NCBI GenBank assembly: GCA_951406725.2
Contig: OX597817.1
Span: 66,588,001-66,652,000 of the forward strand
Direction of reading: 5' to 3'
Length of the DNA stretch: 64,000 nucleotides
DNA from: Octopus vulgaris
Lineage: Eukaryota
Shown: piece by piece, positions 149-51,460 of the stretch
Layout of the letters: each line of letters opens with the position of its first letter
Numbering within the stretch: the stretch's first letter is position 1
The notes under the pieces: model-generated
The model's database searches: none
Seen by the model: the letters and a program-made list of their open reading frames with translations, nothing else
What the model was told of the DNA's origin: nothing
Program-made: the position numbers and the translations under genes

Positions 149-1831
149 ATATATATATGATACACATGCACATATATATGACATACATGTATGTGCGCGC
201 ACACACACACACACACACACAAATATATATAAGTTAGAGAAAAGTTGTAACATCACCTATGAGATTCATGTCACTCTTCTATAAACTGAATAACTGTGCT
301 AACCACTTCAACAGAGTGACTTCACAACTTTGACCATTCAGATTTGAAGACTAACCTAAGTAGCTAAGATTATATATACCAGTAACCTACTTGCAGAGAT
401 CTGAGGTCCATGTAGTATCAAAATATGGTATTACATATATTAGATATATATATATATATATATATATAACTAATATATAAATCAGAAAAATGTCAATATT
501 GCCTATGGGATATGAATGCCCTTTCTACTAAAATTAGAGTACACATCACACACACGCATGCATGCACGCACACATACACACGCAGCACATCTGATACGGT
601 TACATTAGCATATTAGATGTTTCTATTGCTTGATGTTTGTGTACATTATGTTATATAATTTTATTATCTTTTTTATTAGGACATTGGTAAAGAATCTTTT
701 TATAACCATAGTGGAAATGTTGCCAACTTTATCAGTTTTTAGTAAAGTTTCTAAAAATTCTAAAACATAGGTTTTGTCTTTTGATGTATTCTATTGGTTG
801 ATTGTGTATAATTGTCTAGTGATGTTGTATGTATGCCAAGAAACATACTAAGAAATCTACTGCTGGCTTACATGACTGTTGTTACCTTTCATTGCTCACA
901 GGCAATCTGTATACTTACAAGAACAGAGGGGCTTTGAGTTCTCTATTCTGACCTATACATGCAAATTTCTATGTGGCTAATATTGAGAATAAGGCAATTT
1001 TAGAATGTAACCATACTATCTAAAGTCTGTAAAGCTGCTGCTTGTGTGTGTGTGTGTGTTATTATTTTAAAGCAAGTTTAAGAATAACAATGGAACATTT
1101 ACCAATAGGAGGAGAGTTGATACTGAAAGTAGAGTTGAAAGGAAGCTGCTGCATAGTCCCTTAATCTAGGAACATCATTGAATATTGTAACCTTGAGTAC
1201 ATTATACTGCATGGGGTAGGAAATAAAAAGACAAGGTGACCACTGTGATGATTACCTTAAATTACTGATTTGTATCTTAAAATTGTTCTTCATTATTTGT
1301 CATGTTAATGTTGTGCCATTTATTAAATTTGAGCTATGCATTCTTAATGTTATCCAATGAATATCAAACTCCCAATTAAATCTTGTGCTTATGCACAGAG
1401 ATCCAGGGGGAGAAGGGACTGACATGCAGCTAATGAAGGAAGGTGTTACCTGTAAACTATATGACATAAATCCTCTTAATTTGAAACCTATGTAATTTAC
1501 CTTAATAACTCTCTTTAAAGTTTTTCTGAAAGTCTTATATAACAATTGGTGATGAGGATGATCACTGGACAATGTTTGAACCTTAACTTGGAAGAAGCCA
1601 GTGCCTGGCTAATACAATGCAAAACTCTTGTGTGAAGTGTTGATGATATCAAAAAGAAGCTATTTCTTTTAACGTATGGGGTTAAAGCTATAATGAAGCT
1701 GAACAGCCATAGCTGGAATGTTTTTGATCTTAAGTCTAGTGGAAAAAGGCAGACCCTGGTTGAAACAACAACAACCACGACCAGTTTAATGAAACTACTC
1801 CACCATATATTCAATGTAATATTTATTTACA

Positions 1832-3866
1832 TACAGAGGTATCAAGCTGTTGGACCAGGTGATGAAGGTTACGGAGAGGGTCATAGCCCAACTAATTAGA
1901 GAGAGAGTTAGTTTAGATGAGATGCAGTTTGGGTTTGTGCCAGGGAAAAGTACTACTGATGCTATATTCCTGGTAAGGCAGCTGCAGGAGAAATACCTAG
2001 CCAAAGATAAGCCCCTGTACCTGGCTTTTGTTGACATGGAGAAAGCCTTCGACAGGGTCCCCCGATCCCTTATCTGGTGGGCAATGAGGAAACTAGGGAT
2101 AGATGAATGGTTAGTGAGAGCTGTGCGGGCCATGTATAGGGACGCCGCTAGTAGGGTGAGGGTTGGAAATGTGTACAGTGAAGAATTCCGGGTAGAGGTA
2201 GGAGTCCACCAAGGCTCAGTACTCAGCCCCCTCCTATTTATCATAGTCCTCCAGGCAATAACGGAGGAATTCAAGACAGGATGCCCTTGGGAGCTCCTCT
2301 ATGCTGATGACCTTGCTCTAATTGCTGAGTCGCTATCAGAACTGGAGGAGAAGTTTCAGGTGTGGAAACAAGGATTAGAATCGAAGGGCCTCAGAGTCAA
2401 TCTAGCTAAAACCAAAGTCATAATCAGTAAGAAGGTAGACAAATCACAAACACCTTCAGGTAGATGGCCCTGCTCGATCTGTAGAAAAGGTGTAGGTAGA
2501 AACTCTATAAGATGCACCGAGTGTAAGCTATGGACACATAAGAGATGCAGCAATGTCAAAGGAAGGCTAACTAGGAAGATGGTTTTTGTATGTGGCAGAT
2601 GCTCAGGAACAATAAACACTGAAAATGCTCTGAGACCAACTTCCGTCACTTTCCAGGGAGAAAAACTAGAAATAGTTGATAGTTTCCGTTACCTAGGTGA
2701 CCAAGTCAGCAGCGGGGGCGGGTGTGCTGAAAGTGTAACTGCTAGAGTAAGAATAGCTTGGGCAAAGTTCAGAGAGCTCTTACCTCTGCTGGTGACAAAA
2801 GGCCTCTCGCACAGAGTGAAAGGCAGACTGTATGATGCGTGTGTACGAACAGCCATGCTACATGGCAGTGAAACATGGGCCGTGACTGCTGAGGATATGC
2901 GTAAGCTCGCTAGAAATGAAGCCAGTATGCTCCGATGGATGTGTAATGCCGGTACTCACACTCGGCAGAGTGTAAGTACCTTGAGAGAAAAGCTGGACCT
3001 AAGAAGCATCAGTTGTGGTGTGCAAGAGAGACGTTTGCGCTGGTATGGTCATGTGGCGAGAATGGATGAAGATAGTTGTGTGAAAAAGTGCCACACCCTA
3101 GCGGTTGAGGGAACCTGTGGAAGAGGCAGACCCAGGAAAACCTGGGACGAGGTGGTGAAGCACGACCTTCGAACTTTAGGTCTCACTGAGGAAATGACTA
3201 GAGACCGAGACCTCTGGAAGTGTGCTGTGCGCGAGAAGACCCGGCAGGACAAGTGAGTCCATAACCCGTGGCCTTCTACACGGGATGGAGCCAGCCTACG
3301 TATGCATACCTTCCCTTCTTGGGACACAAAACTCTACTTGTGAAGACGTGTTGAGGCAAGTGAGGATCAAAATCGAAATCGATCAATGGAAATTGCGGAT
3401 GTGCTACCAGTGCCGGTGGCATGTCAAAACTCTGCTTGTGAAGACCCGTTGAGGCAAGTGAGGATCAGAATCGAAATCGATCAATGGAAATCGATCAATG
3501 GAAATTGCAGATGTGTTACCAGTGCCGGTGGCATGTAAGAGAACTTTCCGTTTCGCGACCGTTGCCAGCACCGCCCCGTTTCGTGTCCGTTGCCAGCCTC
3601 GCCTGGCCCTCGTGCCGGTGGCACATAAAAAGCACCATCCGTTCGTGGCCGTTTGCCAGCTGTCTGGCACCAGTGCGGGTGGCACGTAAAAAGCACCCAC
3701 TACACTCACGGAGTGGTTGGCGTTAGGAAGGGCATCCAGCCGTAGAAACACTGCCAGATTTGACTGGGCCTGATGAAGCCTTCTGGCTTCACAGACCCCA
3801 GTAGAACCGTCCAACCCATGCTAGCATGGAAAACGGACGCTAAACGATGATGATGATGATGATGAA
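1832..3866 (+). mobile_element. RTE-clade non-LTR retrotransposon, 5'-truncated, recent
   Basis: Starts abruptly at the YRGIKLL motif, has an uninterrupted RT ORF, a 3' UTR with internal duplications, and ends in a (GAT)n tail at 3846-3865. Confidence 0.93.
1850..3256 (+). CDS. RTE LINE reverse transcriptase (C-terminal part, endonuclease lost) with inserted PHD-type zinc finger
   Basis: Motifs QFGF, FVDMEKAFDRV, GVHQGSVLSPLLF, YADD, FRYLG, RLRWYGHV and RGRPRKTW. No stops over 468 aa. Confidence 0.92.
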   Translation: MDQVMKVTERVIAQLIRERVSLDEMQFGFVPGKSTTDAIFLVRQLQEKYLAKDKPLYLAFVDMEKAFDRVPRSLIWWAMRKLGIDEWLVRAVRAMYRDAASRVRVGNVYSEEFRVEVGVHQGSVLSPLLFIIVLQAITEEFKTGCPWELLYADDLALIAESLSELEEKFQVWKQGLESKGLRVNLAKTKVIISKKVDKSQTPSGRWPCSICRKGVGRNSIRCTECKLWTHKRCSNVKGRLTRKMVFVCGRCSGTINTENALRPTSVTFQGEKLEIVDSFRYLGDQVSSGGGCAESVTARVRIAWAKFRELLPLLVTKGLSHRVKGRLYDACVRTAMLHGSETWAVTAEDMRKLARNEASMLRWMCNAGTHTRQSVSTLREKLDLRSISCGVQERRLRWYGHVARMDEDSCVKKCHTLAVEGTCGRGRPRKTWDEVVKHDLRTLGLTEEMTRDRDLWKCAVREKTRQDK

Positions 3867-3999: not shown

Positions 4000-4740
4000 T
4001 TGAGTCATCCCATAAATAATACAGATTTTTTATACTTCTTTTATTTTTCAAAATTATGAGAAACAAAGTTCTTTTTTAATCTAAAATATAATCTCCTTCA
4101 TTTTCTACAATGCTCTTCCATCTATCTGGTAGACTTGCAAGGCCCCTCTTCCAAAATTCATCTTCACTGTATGTCACTGAGCATTATCCTGATGAAAGAA
4201 CACCTTTTGTCTAGAAACCAAAGATGGTCGTTTTTCTTCTAGCACTGACTTGAATGACAGGTTGAATGACCAAATCCAAGCTTCTCTACTAGTTCCTCAA
4301 CAGTTACAATGGGATTTTGTTCCACCAGGGTTTGTAGGATGTCCTTGTTGAGCTCTACAGATCTTCCAAGATGAGGTTTGTCTTCTAGGCTGTAGTTTCC
4401 AGCTTGGAACATCTGGAACCAACGTTGACACTGGCTTATGCTTAATGTCCAATCCCTATATACTACATTAATATTCCTCGCACTTTCCATTGCATTGTTG
4501 CCTTTATTGAACTCATATTGCAAAATATGTTGAATATGCTCTTTGCCACTCCCATTGCAGCTTTGAAAAAATAACTGTTAAAATCGAACTGCAGTCCTCA
4601 AAACTTGCACTAAGAATAAGTCATGGTAAAATTACTACCTGCTTTTATAGCAAGTTGATGCAGGTAGTTTACTCCATCCCTCTCCGACTTTTAGTTCATG
4701 CAATTGAAAAAAAAAATGCATTATTTATGTGATGATTCAA
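4000..4740 (-). mobile_element. Internally deleted mariner transposon
   Basis: 21-bp TIRs (ttgagtcatcccataaataat / attatttatgtgatgattcaa, 2 mismatches), each flanked by TA. The mariner N-terminal HTH (ORF 4239-4523) sits close to the C-terminal 'FWKRGLASLPDRWKSIVENEGDY'; the catalytic core is missing. Confidence 0.9.
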
Positions 4741-36424: not shown

Positions 36425-37380
36425 TATCTTGGTCTCGATGAGCCAAGCTCAATAAGTCAACAAGGTGGCATTATATTTTGTACTAGTCTTGAAGTAGCAA
36501 GCGGTGCTATTGTATTACAGATTGTATACCTCCTACATTCGGTGACTAAAGCATCATTTAAATTAAGAAATTCAAACTTTGCTGTGCCGTAATTTGCTTC
36601 ACCAAAGTTCCCATATAAACCAGAAAGGGAAGTTGTCATAATCACTCTTCTATACTTCTGTTTAATTGTGCGTAGACATACAGCATGTGTTACCAAATGA
36701 GACCCTCTAAGATATACTCTTTGAATAGTACCCCAGTTATCACCTGTGGCTGTGACGGTCCCATAGAATTCCCGCATTATTTGTCAATATATCAATTTTG
36801 CCAAAAGCAATTAGAGAAGTTTCAACCAGCTTTTCTTTCTTCGACAGAATGGTAACCAGCAGCAAAAGGCGGCGAGCCGGCAGAAACGTTAGCATGCCGG
36901 GCGAAATGCGTAGCTGTATTTCGTCTGCCGTTACGTTCTAAGTTCAAATTCCACCGAGGTCGACTTTGCCTTTCATCCTTTCGGGGTCGATTAAATAAGT
37001 ACCAGTTACGCACTGGGGTCGATATAATCGACTTAATCCGTTTGTCTGTCATTGTTTGTCCTCTCTGTGTTAGCCCCTTGTGGGTAGTAAAGAAATAGGT
37101 ATTTCGTCTGCCGTTGCGTTTTGAGTTCAAATTCCGCCGAGGTCGACTTTGCCTTTCATCCTTTCGGGGTCGATAAATTAAGTACCAGATACGCACTGGG
37201 GTCGATGTAATCGACTTAATCCCTTTGTCTGTCTTTGTTTGTCCCCTCTAGGTTTAGCCCCTTATGGGCAATGAAGAAATAAGAAATAACAATGGTAACC
37301 AGCAACTGCTTTTCCTCCTTTTTCTTGAATTTTTCTCAGACAGCTTCATCAGCTGGTCACAAACTTTTACCAATGCTTTC
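36425..37380 (-). pseudogene. HSD17B4: Processed pseudogene fragment of peroxisomal multifunctional enzyme 2 (SDR domain)
   Basis: Colinear with the HSD17B4 N-terminus: GGKAVAGYHSVEE..KLVETSLIAFGKIDILTNNAGILWDR..W..IQRVYLRGS..KQKYRRVIMTTSLSGLYGNFGEANYGTAK..CNTIAPLATSR. Frameshifts and stops, no introns, SINE insertion. Confidence 0.88.
36864..37290 (+). mobile_element. SINE family B with internal tandem duplication, inserted into the HSD17B4 pseudogene
   Basis: TSD aatggtaaccagca(g/a)c at 36848-36863 and 37291-37306. Confidence 0.92.
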
Positions 37381-44877: not shown

Positions 44878-45247
44878 TGGAATTGAACCTGTGAGTGTTA
44901 TGATTTTCCCCAGACAACAAAATATTTTTTAAAGGTTTCATGAAAGAAAAGTGGAGCAAAATCAGTGACCCCTTTTAAGTGTCTCCGAGACTAATGGAGT
45001 GGGGGTTGACTAGAGGAGAAAACCACGACTCGTGGGTTAATGAAGAGGGAAGATCGGATCAGAGATATCGAGTTATACATAAATGTGAACCTGGCCCAAA
45101 TACAACAGAATGGATTCTGCTAAAGGCACACAAGGTGTTCGTGTTACAGGGGCAATAGATCAGGTCTACAACCCAGTATAAGCGCGCTCGGACGTGGATG
45201 TGTGAATGAACAGAATTAACAATGATATACATAATATAACTGCAGTA

Positions 45248-45450
<203 letters not shown>

Positions 45451-45515
45451 TTGGTGTCAACAAACAGGATTTTAAAAAAATTATTCAAACATACAATAAA
45501 CACAAGTATTAACCT

Positions 45516-46733
45516 TCAAACCAAACTGACTTTCTGGTACCAGTTCCTTCCTTGGTTTTCCCATAGCCAGTAACCCATGGTAAAAAACAGCCCTCTGAAA
45601 GAGGTGAGGAATGTAATTGTGTAGATTAAAGCTAATAAGTGCATCTTGTTGATGCTGTTGTGTGCTAGATTAGCCAGTACTAAAGATGTACATAAGGACA
45701 TAGTTAAGAAGAAAATATAGGCGAGACACGCTAGTGTACTACGCTTGATCATATGTACTTCACTGACGTCTCTCATGTGTCCAGTCTCGTTTAGAGACCA
45801 GATTGTGTAAGCTAGAAATACCAGTGAAAATATTAAGGCCCACACACGAGGTAGTTCCAAAATCCAGGCGCTTTGTTGGAAACGGTAACCATACCAACAG
45901 GGAGCTTCGTTGGTCGCTGTTTGTACTGCTAACCACTCAGCCAAGGTAATAATCGGTACACCCCATCCTAGAACTGCGTAGAGAACTTGCACTTTTAAAG
46001 GATCGTATTGTTTCACTTCCAGGTAACTCAGGTGTCCATGAAGGGCTGTCCAAATATAGGTAGTAATCTCCGCAAATTCCAAAATTACAACGAATACTTC
46101 ACAAAGATGTGGAATATCGAACACAGTAACAACGAGGCCGTCTTCAAGCCATACCATTAAAAGAATAATCTGAAATGATAGTTTCACAGATGCTTCGAGA
46201 ACCAGTGTTGCGAATAAGTTTCTATAGACGTCCATTCGCGGTCCGCTATATTTTTTATAACGCACATAAGCAAGGGTAAAGAAAATGGCTAGCAATGACA
46301 TGGACAGTCCACATATTCCCAGGATACTGGAATCGGTTAAATCCTCAGCTGATGCTTTTCGTATATTTTCTGAATCAAACTGGAAAATTAGTTCAGCTTC
46401 GGAACTGTAACACTGTGTGTAGTTTGTCCAAGCAGACGAATCGTCATCCCACTTCGAACTCCATTCTCCATTTAAGTCACAGCTACGATAAGCAAATTTG
46501 GTTGTATCAGAGCCTTCCAATGAAGGACAAGGTTGGCTTGCTGTAGTGCCGGCAGGAGTTCTTGGCCAGCAAAGGAAACTATCTGTCGTAACATTGCAGT
46601 AGATAGCTTCGCTGTCGGATTCAAGTTCAAGTTCATGATCGAATTTCGAAATACATTCTTCCAGGTATTTTGGTCTCGACGATAAAACAATTGTTCGATT
46701 GGAATCGGTGTTTGTGTCAACTGCTGTTGACAT
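45516..46733 (-). CDS. Divergent class B1 (secretin/calcitonin/CRF/PDF-receptor family) GPCR in a single uninterrupted ORF, 405 aa
   Basis: Hormone-binding domain C..CNVTTDSFLCWPRTPAG..QPCP..RSCDLNGEW..WTNYTQC. Seven hydrophobic segments with GWGVP (TM4), CW (ECL2) and SFRGLF (TM7). In-frame TAA three codons upstream of the ATG. Confidence 0.9.
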   Translation of the reverse strand: MSTAVDTNTDSNRTIVLSSRPKYLEECISKFDHELELESDSEAIYCNVTTDSFLCWPRTPAGTTASQPCPSLEGSDTTKFAYRSCDLNGEWSSKWDDDSSAWTNYTQCYSSEAELIFQFDSENIRKASAEDLTDSSILGICGLSMSLLAIFFTLAYVRYKKYSGPRMDVYRNLFATLVLEASVKLSFQIILLMVWLEDGLVVTVFDIPHLCEVFVVILEFAEITTYIWTALHGHLSYLEVKQYDPLKVQVLYAVLGWGVPIITLAEWLAVQTATNEAPCWYGYRFQQSAWILELPRVWALIFSLVFLAYTIWSLNETGHMRDVSEVHMIKRSTLACLAYIFFLTMSLCTSLVLANLAHNSINKMHLLALIYTITFLTSFRGLFFTMGYWLWENQGRNWYQKVSLV

Positions 46734-48010
46734 TACCGTTTAGGAGAGGTAAATAAACTCGTGCACTCATATATACATATATACTTATACACGCACATAC
46801 ACGCGTTTAGAAAGGACTGAAGTATCTTTTTCTGTGTTTTCTTTTTTTTTAAATGAAAATAGTTGAAGTTCGCCGAAATTTCGAAGGTTACACTTAACTT
46901 ACTGCTAACAGCTTTGCTAAATATGATTGTTTCAGCTGATTTCGCAGTAACTAGCGAGGAGGTTTGATACTAAAAATTCAAATGTAATTCAAAGAATCAT
47001 ACAAGTTGACTTCTCATATTTCATTTGTTTATTGTCTTTTTATCATAAACTCTATTCTGTATCTGCCCCTTTCCTTCTCTTTCTCTCATTCTCACTCATT
47101 CATTCATTCTCTCACTCACCCACCCACTCACTCACTCACTCACTCACTCACTCACTACTCCCTTGTTTCTTCCTTTCTCTCTCTCTCTCTTTCTCTGTAT
47201 CACTCTACCAGTCATCCTGTCTTTATTTCTCTTCCGTCATTCCTGCTTTCCTTTCTTTTTCTTTACCATCCTTTTTCAATGTGGTTTTAGCAGTCATGGG
47301 AGGAGCTTTCTTGTGCCTTATACAAACAGGGCTTAATACATACACGACTGAGGGGAAAACCGCTTTGTCACACACACACAAGCACAAACATACAGTCACA
47401 CTAACACACAACACACATACAACCACACAGCACACACGTACACACATGCATACACACACATATATACATACGCAATTACACTAGCACACATATACACACA
47501 ATCACACAACACATATACACATATACGTTAACCCACATAAACACGCGTAGTTACACATACACACATATATGCACACATATACACTTTCTACTAGATATCT
47601 ATTAAGTTCAGCTTGACAGTTTGTGCTTGTTTCTTCTCAAGGGAGTCGGGTCCATTTCTCTAGTCTTAAACCCACCCATCTATCTGTAGCTGTTCTCATT
47701 TTGCAATCTAATTTTTTTTTTCTGATGGTAAACCGATAAAGATAATTTTTTAAAGAATATAAGAAACAATATTGATGCATAAGAACACAACACACAACGA
47801 GACGACAAGGAAACCTCTATTCGAGAGATGAGAACTAGGCCTGCGAGCAAAATCTTACCCGAGTTCAAATTTGAAACACCCCTCCGATGCAGTCTTTAAG
47901 AAGATATATAAGAAAAAAATGTCTTTTTTTAAACCTTAAGATCAAAATAAAAATTTAATACATGTTACTAACTTTTGAATTTGTAATATAAAAGATTCAT
48001 TACTATACCC

Positions 48011-48850: not shown

Positions 48851-49124
48851 CATTTATCATTATTATTAAGCAAGGCGGCGAGCTGGCAGAATCGTTAGCA
48901 CGCCGGGAGAAATGCTTCGCGATGTAACGGCTGATGTTAATTAGTGTACAGTTGAAGTTTGTTCGGAAACAATAGAGGTTGATTGGTACGGTTGAAATTA
49001 ATTTTTGTATAACAATAATATGGTATGTCGGAATCGTAATCAGTTTAAAGGACTGGTTCATCGTTGATTGCCATTATGTAAAGATGAAAGAACAGTGATT
49101 GAAGTTGTGAAGAAAACATTTATT

Positions 49125-51460
49125 TTACACAAGCCTGATAGCGGTTCTGTGGCATTTTTTACATACCATGCTATGTTGTTTTCTTCTGATCTAATGCTGT
49201 GTTCGCATCCAATAAGTCCTCTTTCCCCTTTTTTTCTTGGTGCATACAGTCTGCCTGTGTCACTTTTTGGGTGGAGTGTCCCATATCTCGTTAGCAACGT
49301 CCTTGTCTTTCTATCTAAGCTGTATAGTTCATCTACTGTCCATGCGATTACCCCTGCTCTATATCTAAGGAGTGAAACCGCCCAGGTGTTGATAGTTTCA
49401 GTCTTATTCCGTCCGTTTAATTTCGACTTAAGGAACAGTCTCAGTCTGCGCAAGTACCCAACCTTAAATTCCCCTTGGAAGATGCCCCTCCTAATTTCTA
49501 CTGTCCCTAAACTTCTTCCGTATACTTTCAGGTCCGTCCTCCAATTCACCATACTTTTTCCAAGTAATCGCTCAACAGTCGATGCAATACCAAATAGGTT
49601 CATACATTCCATAATCCAAGAATGTGGGATTATATCGTACGCCTTACGATAGTCGATCCATGATATGGCTAAGTTACTTTTCCTCCTCTTGCAGTCTCTA
49701 AGTACAGTTTTGTCTATCAGGAGTTGATCTTTGGTACTTCTGCACTTACGCTTGCAACCCTTCTGCTCATGTGGCAAGACTCCATTTTTTTTCCAGATTT
49801 TCGTACATTGACTCTGCGAGTATTCCAGTCAATAACTTCCACATAAGTGGCAAACAGGATATCGGCCTGTAATTGTCTACCGTAATGCTTTTTTCTATGT
49901 TTTTCAAGCATAGCACTGTCCCACCCAATGTCAACCACTCTGGTGTTACTTGGTCGGCAATTAACAAGGTGTTGAGTTGCGCAGCTATTCGTGCATGACA
50001 TTCACCAAGTCTTTTCATCCAGTAGCCTTGAACTCCATCTTCACTTCCTGAACTGAAATGACTACTTCTGCCTGTTTTGGACAGACTACTGTTTGTTTCA
50101 GTTCTTGCAACCATTCAACATCCTGCTTGTTTTCCTTGTCTTTGCTCCAGATGTCACTCCAAAATCTTTGACTTTCATTGTTATCTGGTATCAACTTTTC
50201 ATCTGTACACTCTCCATTTATTTCTTTATAGAATTCCTTCTTATCTACTCTGAATAACCTATTCTGGTGGTAACCCTTCATTCTTTGGTCGTATCTTATC
50301 ATATTTGCTTTCTTTGCAACGAGGCGCTATTTCAGTTCCTCCATCACCACTTTCAGGCCCTTTCTTTCAATATTATACATCCTTTTCAGCGCCCTGTATT
50401 TTTGTTCGTTTTTAAGCTCCCCTTTCTCTTTTCAGTGTAACACTGAAATTTCCTTCGAGAGCATGTCTAACCCTGCCTGTATTCTTCTTTTCCACCATGG
50501 ATCTTTTCTTTTGTCACTCCCATTATGTTTCTTTTCCTTGACATCAACACCCACGTTTTTTGCTACAACAATACTTGCTGCCTTGATTAAATTATTCGTT
50601 TCTGTGATGTTGTTTGTTCTGATGTATTTCAGAATTTCATTGACATTTTTCGTTTCTTGGTTCAATTTCCATCGATCAACCTTTTAAAGGTTGCAAATAA
50701 TGTCGCTATCGTTCTCCTGTAGACTTGCCTTTATTCTGTCGTAGATTGCCTTTTGTTCGTCTGTCATGTCGCCAGTTTCATTGTCTTCTTTTAGATCATC
50801 TATATGTCTCTCATCAAGTAAACTACCACCGCTTCTTTCCTGTGCTATGAGATTATTCTTGTTAGTAAGAACTGTATTTTCATCGTTATCTCTGCTGCTA
50901 TTGTCCAAGACCCGTCTTTTGATAGCTTCGAGCTCTACTTCTGTGAACCAACAATTTTTTCTTATTGCTCTAGCTTGATCACATAGTCTCTGTTCCGTGA
51001 GTTGAAACAATCCCTTTTCTCTCCAATGATCATACATACGTTGTCGGTAACCCCTAATTTGAGCACCATTTTCATCTACCGGACTGCTCAGGTAGTAACT
51101 CTCCATGACCACAGCATTAATCTGCTTGCTCCATCTACCGTTTGTAGTGGTCCCTTTCTGGATATCGACAGGCTGGAGCCGGACCAGAATCTCTGAGCCT
51201 GCCGGGTGGAACACTGTCACCATCATCGGCTTCAGTTTCTATATTTTCAACTTTTATCTTGTGCTTGAGATAATCATAAATATGTGGTTGTTGAAGGAAA
51301 TAGTTGAGTAGCAGCTTGGTGAATAGATAATAATATACAGGTCTATAAATAGATTCGGCAGATGGTGGTGAGGTCAGCCATAGAAACAAAAGAATCTTCG
51401 CACCCTTTGGGTCAGTAGAGGTCAAATGTATTTACCGCTACCAGTGCCCACTGAGAGCGC
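49125..51460 (-). mobile_element. R4/Dong-like non-LTR retrotransposon, frameshifted, internally deleted and 3'-truncated
   Basis: N-terminal RWSK..VMESYY..RGYRQRMY..LTEQRLCDQAR. RT motifs [33 protein letters not shown]. After IFQG the ORF jumps to [14 protein letters not shown], so the YMDD region is deleted. Confidence 0.88.

Follow-up and report, generated by a model that had tools for sequence, protein, structure and literature searches.

An intronless octopus receptor gene likely belongs to an old mollusc family of PDF-receptor paralogs that lack the class B1 activation switch

Introduction

Why does an octopus carry a class B1 receptor gene that lies in one open reading frame (ORF) and lacks the residues by which receptors of its class are switched on? 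The gene is located in a stretch of 64,000 nucleotides of Octopus vulgaris DNA (contig OX597817.1, positions 66,588,001 to 66,652,000, forward strand), referred to here as the window. A preliminary description of this sequence regarded it as a retrogene under selection, with rewritten activation motifs and no signal peptide, that might be constitutively active, act as a decoy or scavenger, or have been re-purposed in this lineage. In the available part of PMC10166269, the PxxG motif is described as critical for class B1 activation, positions 2.60 and 7.49 are placed together in a central polar network, and GWGxP and the CW of extracellular loop 2 (ECL2) are structural. The analysis reported here assigns the gene to a group older and wider than that description held, a switch-less family of pigment-dispersing factor receptor (PDFR) paralogs in molluscs, and the octopus gene is likely a member of an old, overlooked receptor family and not a cephalopod oddity.

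Gene structure and expression

The receptor gene is a single ORF of 405 amino acids on the minus strand (window 46733-45516), running from the ATG at 46733 to the TGA at 45516 with no internal stop, and ORF and domain searches identify it as the single-exon coding sequence of an atypical, PDFR-derived class B1 receptor. As first described, ectodomain and seven-transmembrane (7TM) bundle share this one frame, preceded by an in-frame TAA three codons 5′ of the ATG (46740-46742, minus strand). Eight sequencing runs were compared with the locus, two of which gave informative contigs, the others yielding nothing or microsatellite matches only. Both informative runs were guessed to be RNA: one contig, from X13 (1486 nt), is colinear with 45450-46907 and thus with the whole coding sequence, and the other, from X6 (692 nt), spans 46237-46927, covering the coding sequence's 5′ half together with the upstream stop, and both cross the TAA without a joint. 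A probable unspliced 5′ leader (46734-46927, minus strand) is joined to the coding sequence, with the X6 contig ending at 46927 and X13 contigs extending to 46907 and 47064. Of the datasets containing this sequence, 14 were guessed to be RNA and none was recorded as such. The gene is likely expressed.

The N-terminus is polar, as had been noted, with no hydrophobic stretch and a best eight-residue Kyte-Doolittle (KD) value of 0.51. A hidden upstream coding exon carrying a signal peptide was considered and rejected, as the X6 and X13 contigs contain no joints and the canonical PDFR has no signal peptide either. Among 111 canonical PDFR-type proteins whose sequence begins with Met, a simple KD measure detects no eight-residue stretch with KD ≥ 2.0 in 91, and the canonical PDFR of O. 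bimaculoides has 12 residues before its first ectodomain Cys. The absence of a signal peptide is thus inherited, because the parental PDFR type has none, and loses the novelty first ascribed to it.

Residues 1-281 of the window protein are 100% identical to the O. vulgaris model CAI9721157.1, and a single difference (E73Q) separates it from O. sinensis XP_029635728.1. Proteins of this gene are named "PDF receptor" or "CGRP type 1 receptor" in databases, and automatic annotation gives the octopus copy and the true PDFR the same name. Two public gene models (P0008 and P0010) leave the ORF by splicing at cryptic donors that follow CW280 and QK401, which truncates or alters their C-termini; the annotations with alternative C-termini are a 287-aa model in O. 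vulgaris and a 411-aa model in O. bimaculoides. The X13 contig is unspliced through both points, making these alternative C-termini model artefacts or minor forms. The full-length protein closes its 11-residue tail with VSLV (45519-45530, minus strand), an ending found in all six cephalopod rows of the family alignment and in one of 20 other family members, and which matches a class I PDZ-ligand pattern. ATCT and ATGT microsatellites (window 45240-45445) begin about 70 bases beyond the stop codon, and the X13 contig stops at their edge.

In the octopus genome searched (G000), a protein search with the receptor's own sequence matched its locus only, besides one weak exon on contig C9, showing the gene to be single-copy. 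A scan for the hormone receptor domain (HRM), in which 60 candidates were scored, gave at least 22 matches at at least 19 loci. The receptor locus matched HRM model positions 3-65 in one frame and was the sole unbroken match among the 19 loci, the first exon match at the other 18 stopping at model positions 29-40. Intronless 7tm_2 ORFs without an HRM match also exist in this genome, mostly 630-730 aa long and clustered on C9; an intronless class B gene is therefore not unique there, and an intronless class B1 gene is. The canonical PDFR is intron-rich, with at least six exons at 83.31-83.43 Mb of C9 (G000:C9:83311196-83436098; six exon matches, L026-L029, L031 and L037, over about 120 kb), and is 93-100% identical to the PDFR of O. 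bimaculoides. An intronless coding sequence and, on a different contig, its intron-rich parent make up the layout expected of a retrogene, as had been suggested; at the age proposed for the copy, a poly(A) remnant and target-site duplications would probably have been erased.

More than 20 of the intronless 7tm_2 ORFs, some with stops, lie at about 28.19-28.89 Mb of C9, with outliers at 24.7 and 30.7 Mb. This cluster is likely the Methuselah-like class B expansion of octopus (group 4 of Ritschard 2019, PMC6408891, in its available part), whose members are class B 7tm_2 proteins too. The octopus receptor differs in being single-copy with a B1 ectodomain, whereas the C9 ORFs are multi-copy, mostly 630-730 aa, and have no HRM match. 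At dozens of further loci (on contigs C29, C30, C31, C8, C10 and others) one exon spans 7tm_2 positions 148-250, likely representing the octopus adhesion-GPCR expansion.

At 1820-3256 (plus strand) the window also contains a 478-aa LINE reverse transcriptase ORF (RVT_1, E 4.9e-31) into which a PHD/C1-like Cys-rich finger is inserted, and at 4239-4577 (minus strand) a Mariner/Mos1 transposase HTH fragment (E 5.2e-17). A fragmented non-LTR retrotransposon (49058-51238, minus strand; RVT_1, E 1.3e-5) lies 5′ of the receptor gene at a distance of about 2.3 kb. A short-chain dehydrogenase fragment (36457-36783, minus strand; adh_short, E 1.5e-6), which resembles a piece of a peroxisomal multifunctional enzyme, is possibly a decayed retrocopy.

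Domain architecture and activation motifs

The protein has the fold of a complete class B1 receptor. Pfam recovers an HRM ectodomain at residues 45-110 (46404-46601, minus strand; E 1.5e-16) with the structural Cys, Asp, Trp, Pro and Gly retained, and a 7tm_2 domain at residues 138-383 (45585-46322, minus strand; E 2.3e-19), and the sequence aligns with the glucagon receptor (GCGR) over its full length. The six Cys, D51, W56, P70, G89 and W91 of the ectodomain are present in all six cephalopod rows, and the bundle retains GWGxP, W3.46, the TM3-ECL2 disulfide, S1.50, G7.50 and the CW of ECL2. An AlphaFold2 (AF2) model built from a 115-row alignment reached pLDDT 87.7 and pTM 0.82 (pLDDT 37.8 with 10 close rows as input), and all 50 Foldseek matches listed for it were class B1 receptors. 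A homodimer prediction scored 0.00, which weighs neither for nor against a dimer.

Nearly all residues of the activation switch are different, as the preliminary description had correctly read. Y170 stands at H2.50 (46224-46226), H232 at E3.50 (46038-46040), S303, within IFSL, at N5.50 (45825-45827) and R380 at Q7.49 (45594-45596), all by alignment on the minus strand. TM6 (residues 331-347; 45693-45743, minus strand) has neither Pro nor the P6.47xxG6.50 hinge, and in the model it forms one unbroken helix over residues 323-356. The HETx set (H2.50, E3.50, T6.42, Y7.57) reads Y170, H232, C336 and Y388, position 6.42 being mostly Ala already in canonical PDFRs. R2.46 and Y7.57 are retained in cephalopod members. 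At position 2.60 the octopus protein has E180 (46194-46196, minus strand), where PDFR has Q and GCGR has K; this residue would be the acid half of a charge swap with 7.49. The PDFR-specific pocket is changed as well: canonical PDFRs have R1.40 (114/115), E1.43 (113/115), Q2.60 (114/115) and K or R3.40 (111/115), and the octopus receptor has S136, G139, E180 and E222.

Relationship to PDF receptors

A HMMER profile search over 1.84 billion representatives found bivalve and gastropod members that word-index searches missed, and the closest matches after the octopus copy's own group were PDF receptors. By profile score and trees, the nearest relative is the protostome PDF/cerebrin receptor (examples are Haliotis XP_071108807.1 and P0238, the "PDF receptor isoform X2" of O. 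bimaculoides). Both have HRM and 7tm_2 domains, a short N-terminus without signal peptide, E3.37, R5.43, CWY in ECL2 and FLxSFxG in TM7. Unlike PDFR, the octopus copy is intronless (at least six exons in PDFR), has a tail of 11 aa compared with about 110, and lacks H2.50, E3.50, N5.50, PxxG, Q7.49, R1.40 and E1.43; the two are about 25-28% identical.

Under LG+C20 the family sits inside the PDFR group (100/98). Placed singly, the cephalopod and both bivalve subgroups fall within the PDFR group, with the gastropod-type group at its edge. Approximately unbiased (AU) tests, which are subject to the model's own long-branch pull, rejected a union of the family with the Cluster-B-like group (p-AU 0.004), of the cephalopod copy with cephalopod PDFR (p-AU 0.0026), and of the cephalopod or the gastropod-type copy with gastropod PDFR (p 0.0003 and 0.0009). 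A position as sister to mollusc PDFR gave p-AU 0.17 in one row set and 0.013 in another, and the attachment inside the PDFR group is thus unstable. The ortholog of PDFR in octopus is the intron-rich gene on C9, and the window gene is a paralog within the PDFR group.

A wider mollusc family

From 149 further profile matches, 19 proteins were chosen for motif loss and P0057 was added by tree position, giving 20 proteins of 361-451 aa, or 26 rows with the six cephalopod rows. In a tree of 125 rows, made after removal of 31 of 156 rows with coverage under 85%, these 26 group as a single clade (SH-aLRT 100), and 18 of them form a clade with 100/100 support under LG+C20. Ten members were looked up and three clusters could be named (Mytilus, Potamilus and Lottia); the subclades are cephalopod, gastropod-type and two bivalve-type, where labels other than those of the named rows are inferred. 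Queries with the octopus and with the Mytilus protein both gave, as top Atlas cluster, one of 409 aa with 72 members, most commonly Mollusca. A 3-kb contig of marine-metagenome DNA carries the bivalve-type P0055 as one uninterrupted ORF preceded by a stop. Full-length calls also exist for P0013, P0032, P0045 and P0076, on ENA contigs between 19 kb and 4.3 Mb in length, which suggests that they are single-exon, if the caller ignores introns. Two other proteins with partial motif loss, P0050 and P0101, fall outside the clade, in an arthropod-type PDFR and a Cluster-B-like group, and may be separate degenerations or mis-predicted models.

Compared with 24 PDFR rows and 65 rows of other class B1 receptors, the family keeps H2.50 in 2/26 (24/24 and 65/65), E3.50 in 2/26 (23/24 and 65/65), N5.50 in 0/26 (24/24 and 59/65), P6.47 in 0/26 (24/24 and 62/65) and G6.50 in 2/26 (24/24 and 61/65). 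These counts describe the family and are no test of it, because 19 rows were selected for such loss; the independent fact is that the tree groups them. Arg or Lys at 7.49 occurs in 22/26 members, 0/24 PDFRs and 0/65 other receptors, and an acid at 2.60 combined with a base at 7.49 in 17/26 members (6/6 cephalopod, 10/14 bivalve-type, 1/6 gastropod-type) and 0/89 canonical rows. R/K7.49, E/D2.60 and H3.52 are common to cephalopod and bivalve members, with E/D2.60 in 1/6 and H3.52 in 0/6 gastropod-type proteins. Because replacement residues otherwise vary freely across the family, the motifs, which had been called rewritten, are better regarded as lost, these three positions excepted. Positions conserved in PDFR are kept at 84-93% in the ectodomain and 94-100% in TM4 and at 11-14% in TM6, and the median tail is 11-29 aa compared with 100-110 aa in canonical receptors.

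A single origin of the cephalopod, bivalve and gastropod copies is considered quite probable from the sequence comparisons, more firmly for cephalopods and bivalves than for gastropods. The competing account, in which the three are separate degenerate PDFR copies joined by long-branch attraction and the octopus gene is a cephalopod-only retrogene, concerns origin alone and could be combined with any of the functions considered below; it is unlikely, yet it explains part of the data. Simulations with separate origins still joined the three lineages in 17/20 trees, and in 20/20 with shared relaxation, at high support, and clade support values alone therefore prove little. The 17 shared derived residues (two in all three lineages) do not exceed the number in simulations, and cephalopod and PDFR rows score alike on the gastropod-type profile (162 and 161). 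However, the real stem measures 0.648, compared with at most 0.27 in 40 separate-origin simulations, and a stem of this length is not mimicked by long-branch attraction. The Mytilus-group profile scores cephalopod rows at 193 and PDFRs at 154, the residues at 7.49, 2.60 and 3.52 recur in cephalopods and bivalves, a pairing of the cephalopod copy with cephalopod PDFR is rejected, and there is one copy per lineage, intronless in two lineages. That rejection, with motif loss common to bivalve and gastropod proteins, also counts against the lineage-specific re-purposing first envisaged.

Selection and constraint

The X13 contig has 13 differences from the window, 10 of which were listed and three of these lie outside the ORF; the seven listed coding differences are six synonymous and one non-synonymous, at 269 and 946 sites, respectively (P=6.7e-4). 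Ten aligned cephalopod proteins have 232 of 407 columns invariant and an intact full-length ORF in every case, with no disablements. Identity to the octopus protein is 97-100% in Octopus-type rows (n=3), 83% in Argonauta and 66-69% in five rows presumed to be decapodiform from their tree position. The G-protein activation motifs have thus been lost under continued purifying selection, which upholds the earlier view of a real gene under selection. A decaying processed pseudogene would also be intronless with lost activation motifs, but the synonymous excess and the conservation of intact ORFs refute that reading, which retains almost no credibility.

Constraint is unevenly distributed along the protein. 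In inner TM5, TM6 and inner TM7, octopus and presumed decapodiform sequences agree at 24/50 and 25/50 positions in the atypical receptor and at 46/48 and 45/48 in canonical PDFR, and in the rest of the TM region at 117/139 in the atypical receptor and 112/139 and 108/139 in canonical PDFR, the segment set of this matched control having been fixed after an earlier look at segment conservation. The outer face has the opposite pattern, with the atypical pair more similar than the canonical pair in the stalk (21/24 vs 15/24), outer TM2 (16/16 vs 10/16), outer TM4 (12/13 vs 7-8/13), ECL2 (15/16 vs 8/16) and outer TM7 (14/15 vs 12/15). The activation segments are not neutral, as R2.46 and Y7.57 are kept and octopus and Argonauta agree there at 45/50 positions. 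The cephalopod stem is long, at 1.4 changes per site, and these alignments suggest that a new outer surface became fixed in cephalopods after it. A bivalve pair showed no such polarity (outer 37/95, inner 34/92), confining outer-face freezing to cephalopods, and one function may therefore not fit the whole family.

Possible functions

The gene is proposed, with about an even chance of being right, to encode an ancient retro-duplicated class B1 receptor uncoupled from G proteins. Acting as a decoy or binding protein, it would bind a peptide or partner outside the cell and leave Gs inactive, which would make the decoy or scavenger the best of the three options of the preliminary description. The mRNA of a PDFR would have been retroposed before the divergence of cephalopods, gastropods and bivalves. 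A straight TM6 would be unable to kink, leaving the Gs pocket closed, and a salt bridge between E2.60 and R7.49 may staple TM2 to TM7. Peptide would be captured by the ectodomain and outer bundle, and in cephalopods the VSLV tail might anchor the receptor to a PDZ protein. Because R1.40, E1.43 and K/R3.40 are changed in the octopus receptor, canonical binding of PDF/cerebrin as its ligand is improbable, but capture of PDF/cerebrin by the ectodomain alone is possible. A PF06324 scan for a PDF/cerebrin precursor in the octopus genome gave three chance matches and no precursor. Scavenging driven by arrestin is disfavoured by the cephalopod tail, which has a median of one Ser/Thr.

Other functions can be weighed against the same data. 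A receptor signalling for a new ligand through a non-canonical switch (Gq/Gi, arrestin or a PDZ scaffold), possibly sensory in cephalopods, would account for a charged pocket (E180, K184, E219, E222, R296, R380) and a VSLV end that are invariant in all six cephalopod rows, and for a stalk, outer TM2, ECL2 and outer TM7 that are 88-100% identical between octopod and presumed decapodiform sequences. It is nevertheless rather unlikely, since conservation is lowest in the transducer-contacting segments (24/50), N5.50, P6.47 and the helix-8 N/E positions are gone, and a single-copy gene shows no sensory-type expansion. Constitutive activity setting a basal cAMP tone was also among the first suggestions, and replacement of H2.50 and E3.50 gives it some basis: HETx mutations make PTH1R, GCGR, VPAC1R and CRF1R constitutively active (PMC10166269, available part), which counts against an uncoupled reading. 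But PxxG and N5.50 have been lost as well, replacement residues vary freely across the family and the G-protein face drifts, making this idea highly improbable.

Alternatively, the protein might associate in the membrane with PDFR or a different receptor as an accessory subunit, altering that receptor's trafficking or pharmacology in the manner of RAMPs or orphan dimer partners. Its outer TM4 is conserved at 12/13 positions in atypical cephalopod pairs compared with 7-8/13 in canonical ones, Glu 4.59 is invariant and the PDFR-specific pocket residues are gone; TM3-5 with ECL2 form the RAMP interface of CTR and CLR, and TM4 is cited as an oligomer face of the secretin receptor (PMC10166269, in the available part and in a reference title, respectively). 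Against this, the ectodomain core is kept at 84-93% in all lineages, beyond the need of a membrane-only partner, and TM4 freezing is confined to cephalopods, leaving the accessory role a distinctly unlikely one. Returning to the uncoupled binding receptor, the fullest version holds that one-time retroposition of PDFR gave molluscs a G-protein-uncoupled class B1 family with a bundle locked by a swapped salt bridge between E2.60 and R7.49, before the three lineages diverged, and that cephalopods re-tooled the outer face and gained a PDZ tail for a new peptide or partner; it is offered tentatively, as somewhat more doubtful than an even bet.

Known systems and significance

Class A has well-known examples of 7TM receptors that do not signal, and to our knowledge no conserved full-length non-signalling family has been described in class B1. 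The functional model proposed is that of the class A receptors ACKR1-4 and CCRL2, which have a full 7TM bundle and no G-protein signalling and act in capture, scavenging and presentation (PMC10157204 and PMC5635198, in their available parts). The octopus receptor differs from these in belonging to class B, with no family-level homology, and binding or scavenging by it is only proposed here; its Ser/Thr-poor tail would fit a CCRL2-like presenter better than an arrestin scavenger.

The rows outside PDFR in the present trees carry group labels (Cluster-A-like, Cluster-B-like) that we assign from tree position and known motifs. PDFR-related or PDF-like (unc4) receptors and those of Clusters A and B are likewise invertebrate class B1 orphans in molluscs (PMC7200681 and PMC8557429, in the parts available), but unlike the octopus family, the non-PDFR rows analysed here keep both H2.50 and E3.50 in 65/65 cases and form separate clades. 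In the available part of the Cardoso 2020 survey of mollusc family B receptors, made with an e-30 cut-off, Lottia 173381 is absent from the eight Lottia genes (PMC7200681), and that of Thiel 2021 names only PDF/cerebrin and PDF-like groups (PMC8557429). An O. vulgaris "CGRPR", which may be the window gene, is given as 25.3% identical to C. elegans pdfr-1 in the accessible text of PMC12919962, and the accessible text of PMC11682238 has nothing relevant to the octopus PDFR-paralog group. The supplementary trees of PMC8557429 and the Dryad trees of PMC6408891 may hold family sequences unremarked. No description of switch-less mollusc PDFR paralogs was found in the literature searched, which lay largely outside subscription journals.

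Databases name these proteins "PDF receptor" or "CGRP receptor", so that expression studies in molluscs can mistake them for the true PDFR. As a natural class B1 bundle without the switch, the family would allow structural biology to probe PxxG, HETx and the 2.60-7.49 polar network. If the proposed function is true, these proteins would be to class B what the atypical chemokine receptors are to class A, and the neuroendocrine signalling of molluscs would gain a further level of peptide control, by capture, presentation or regulation of partners.
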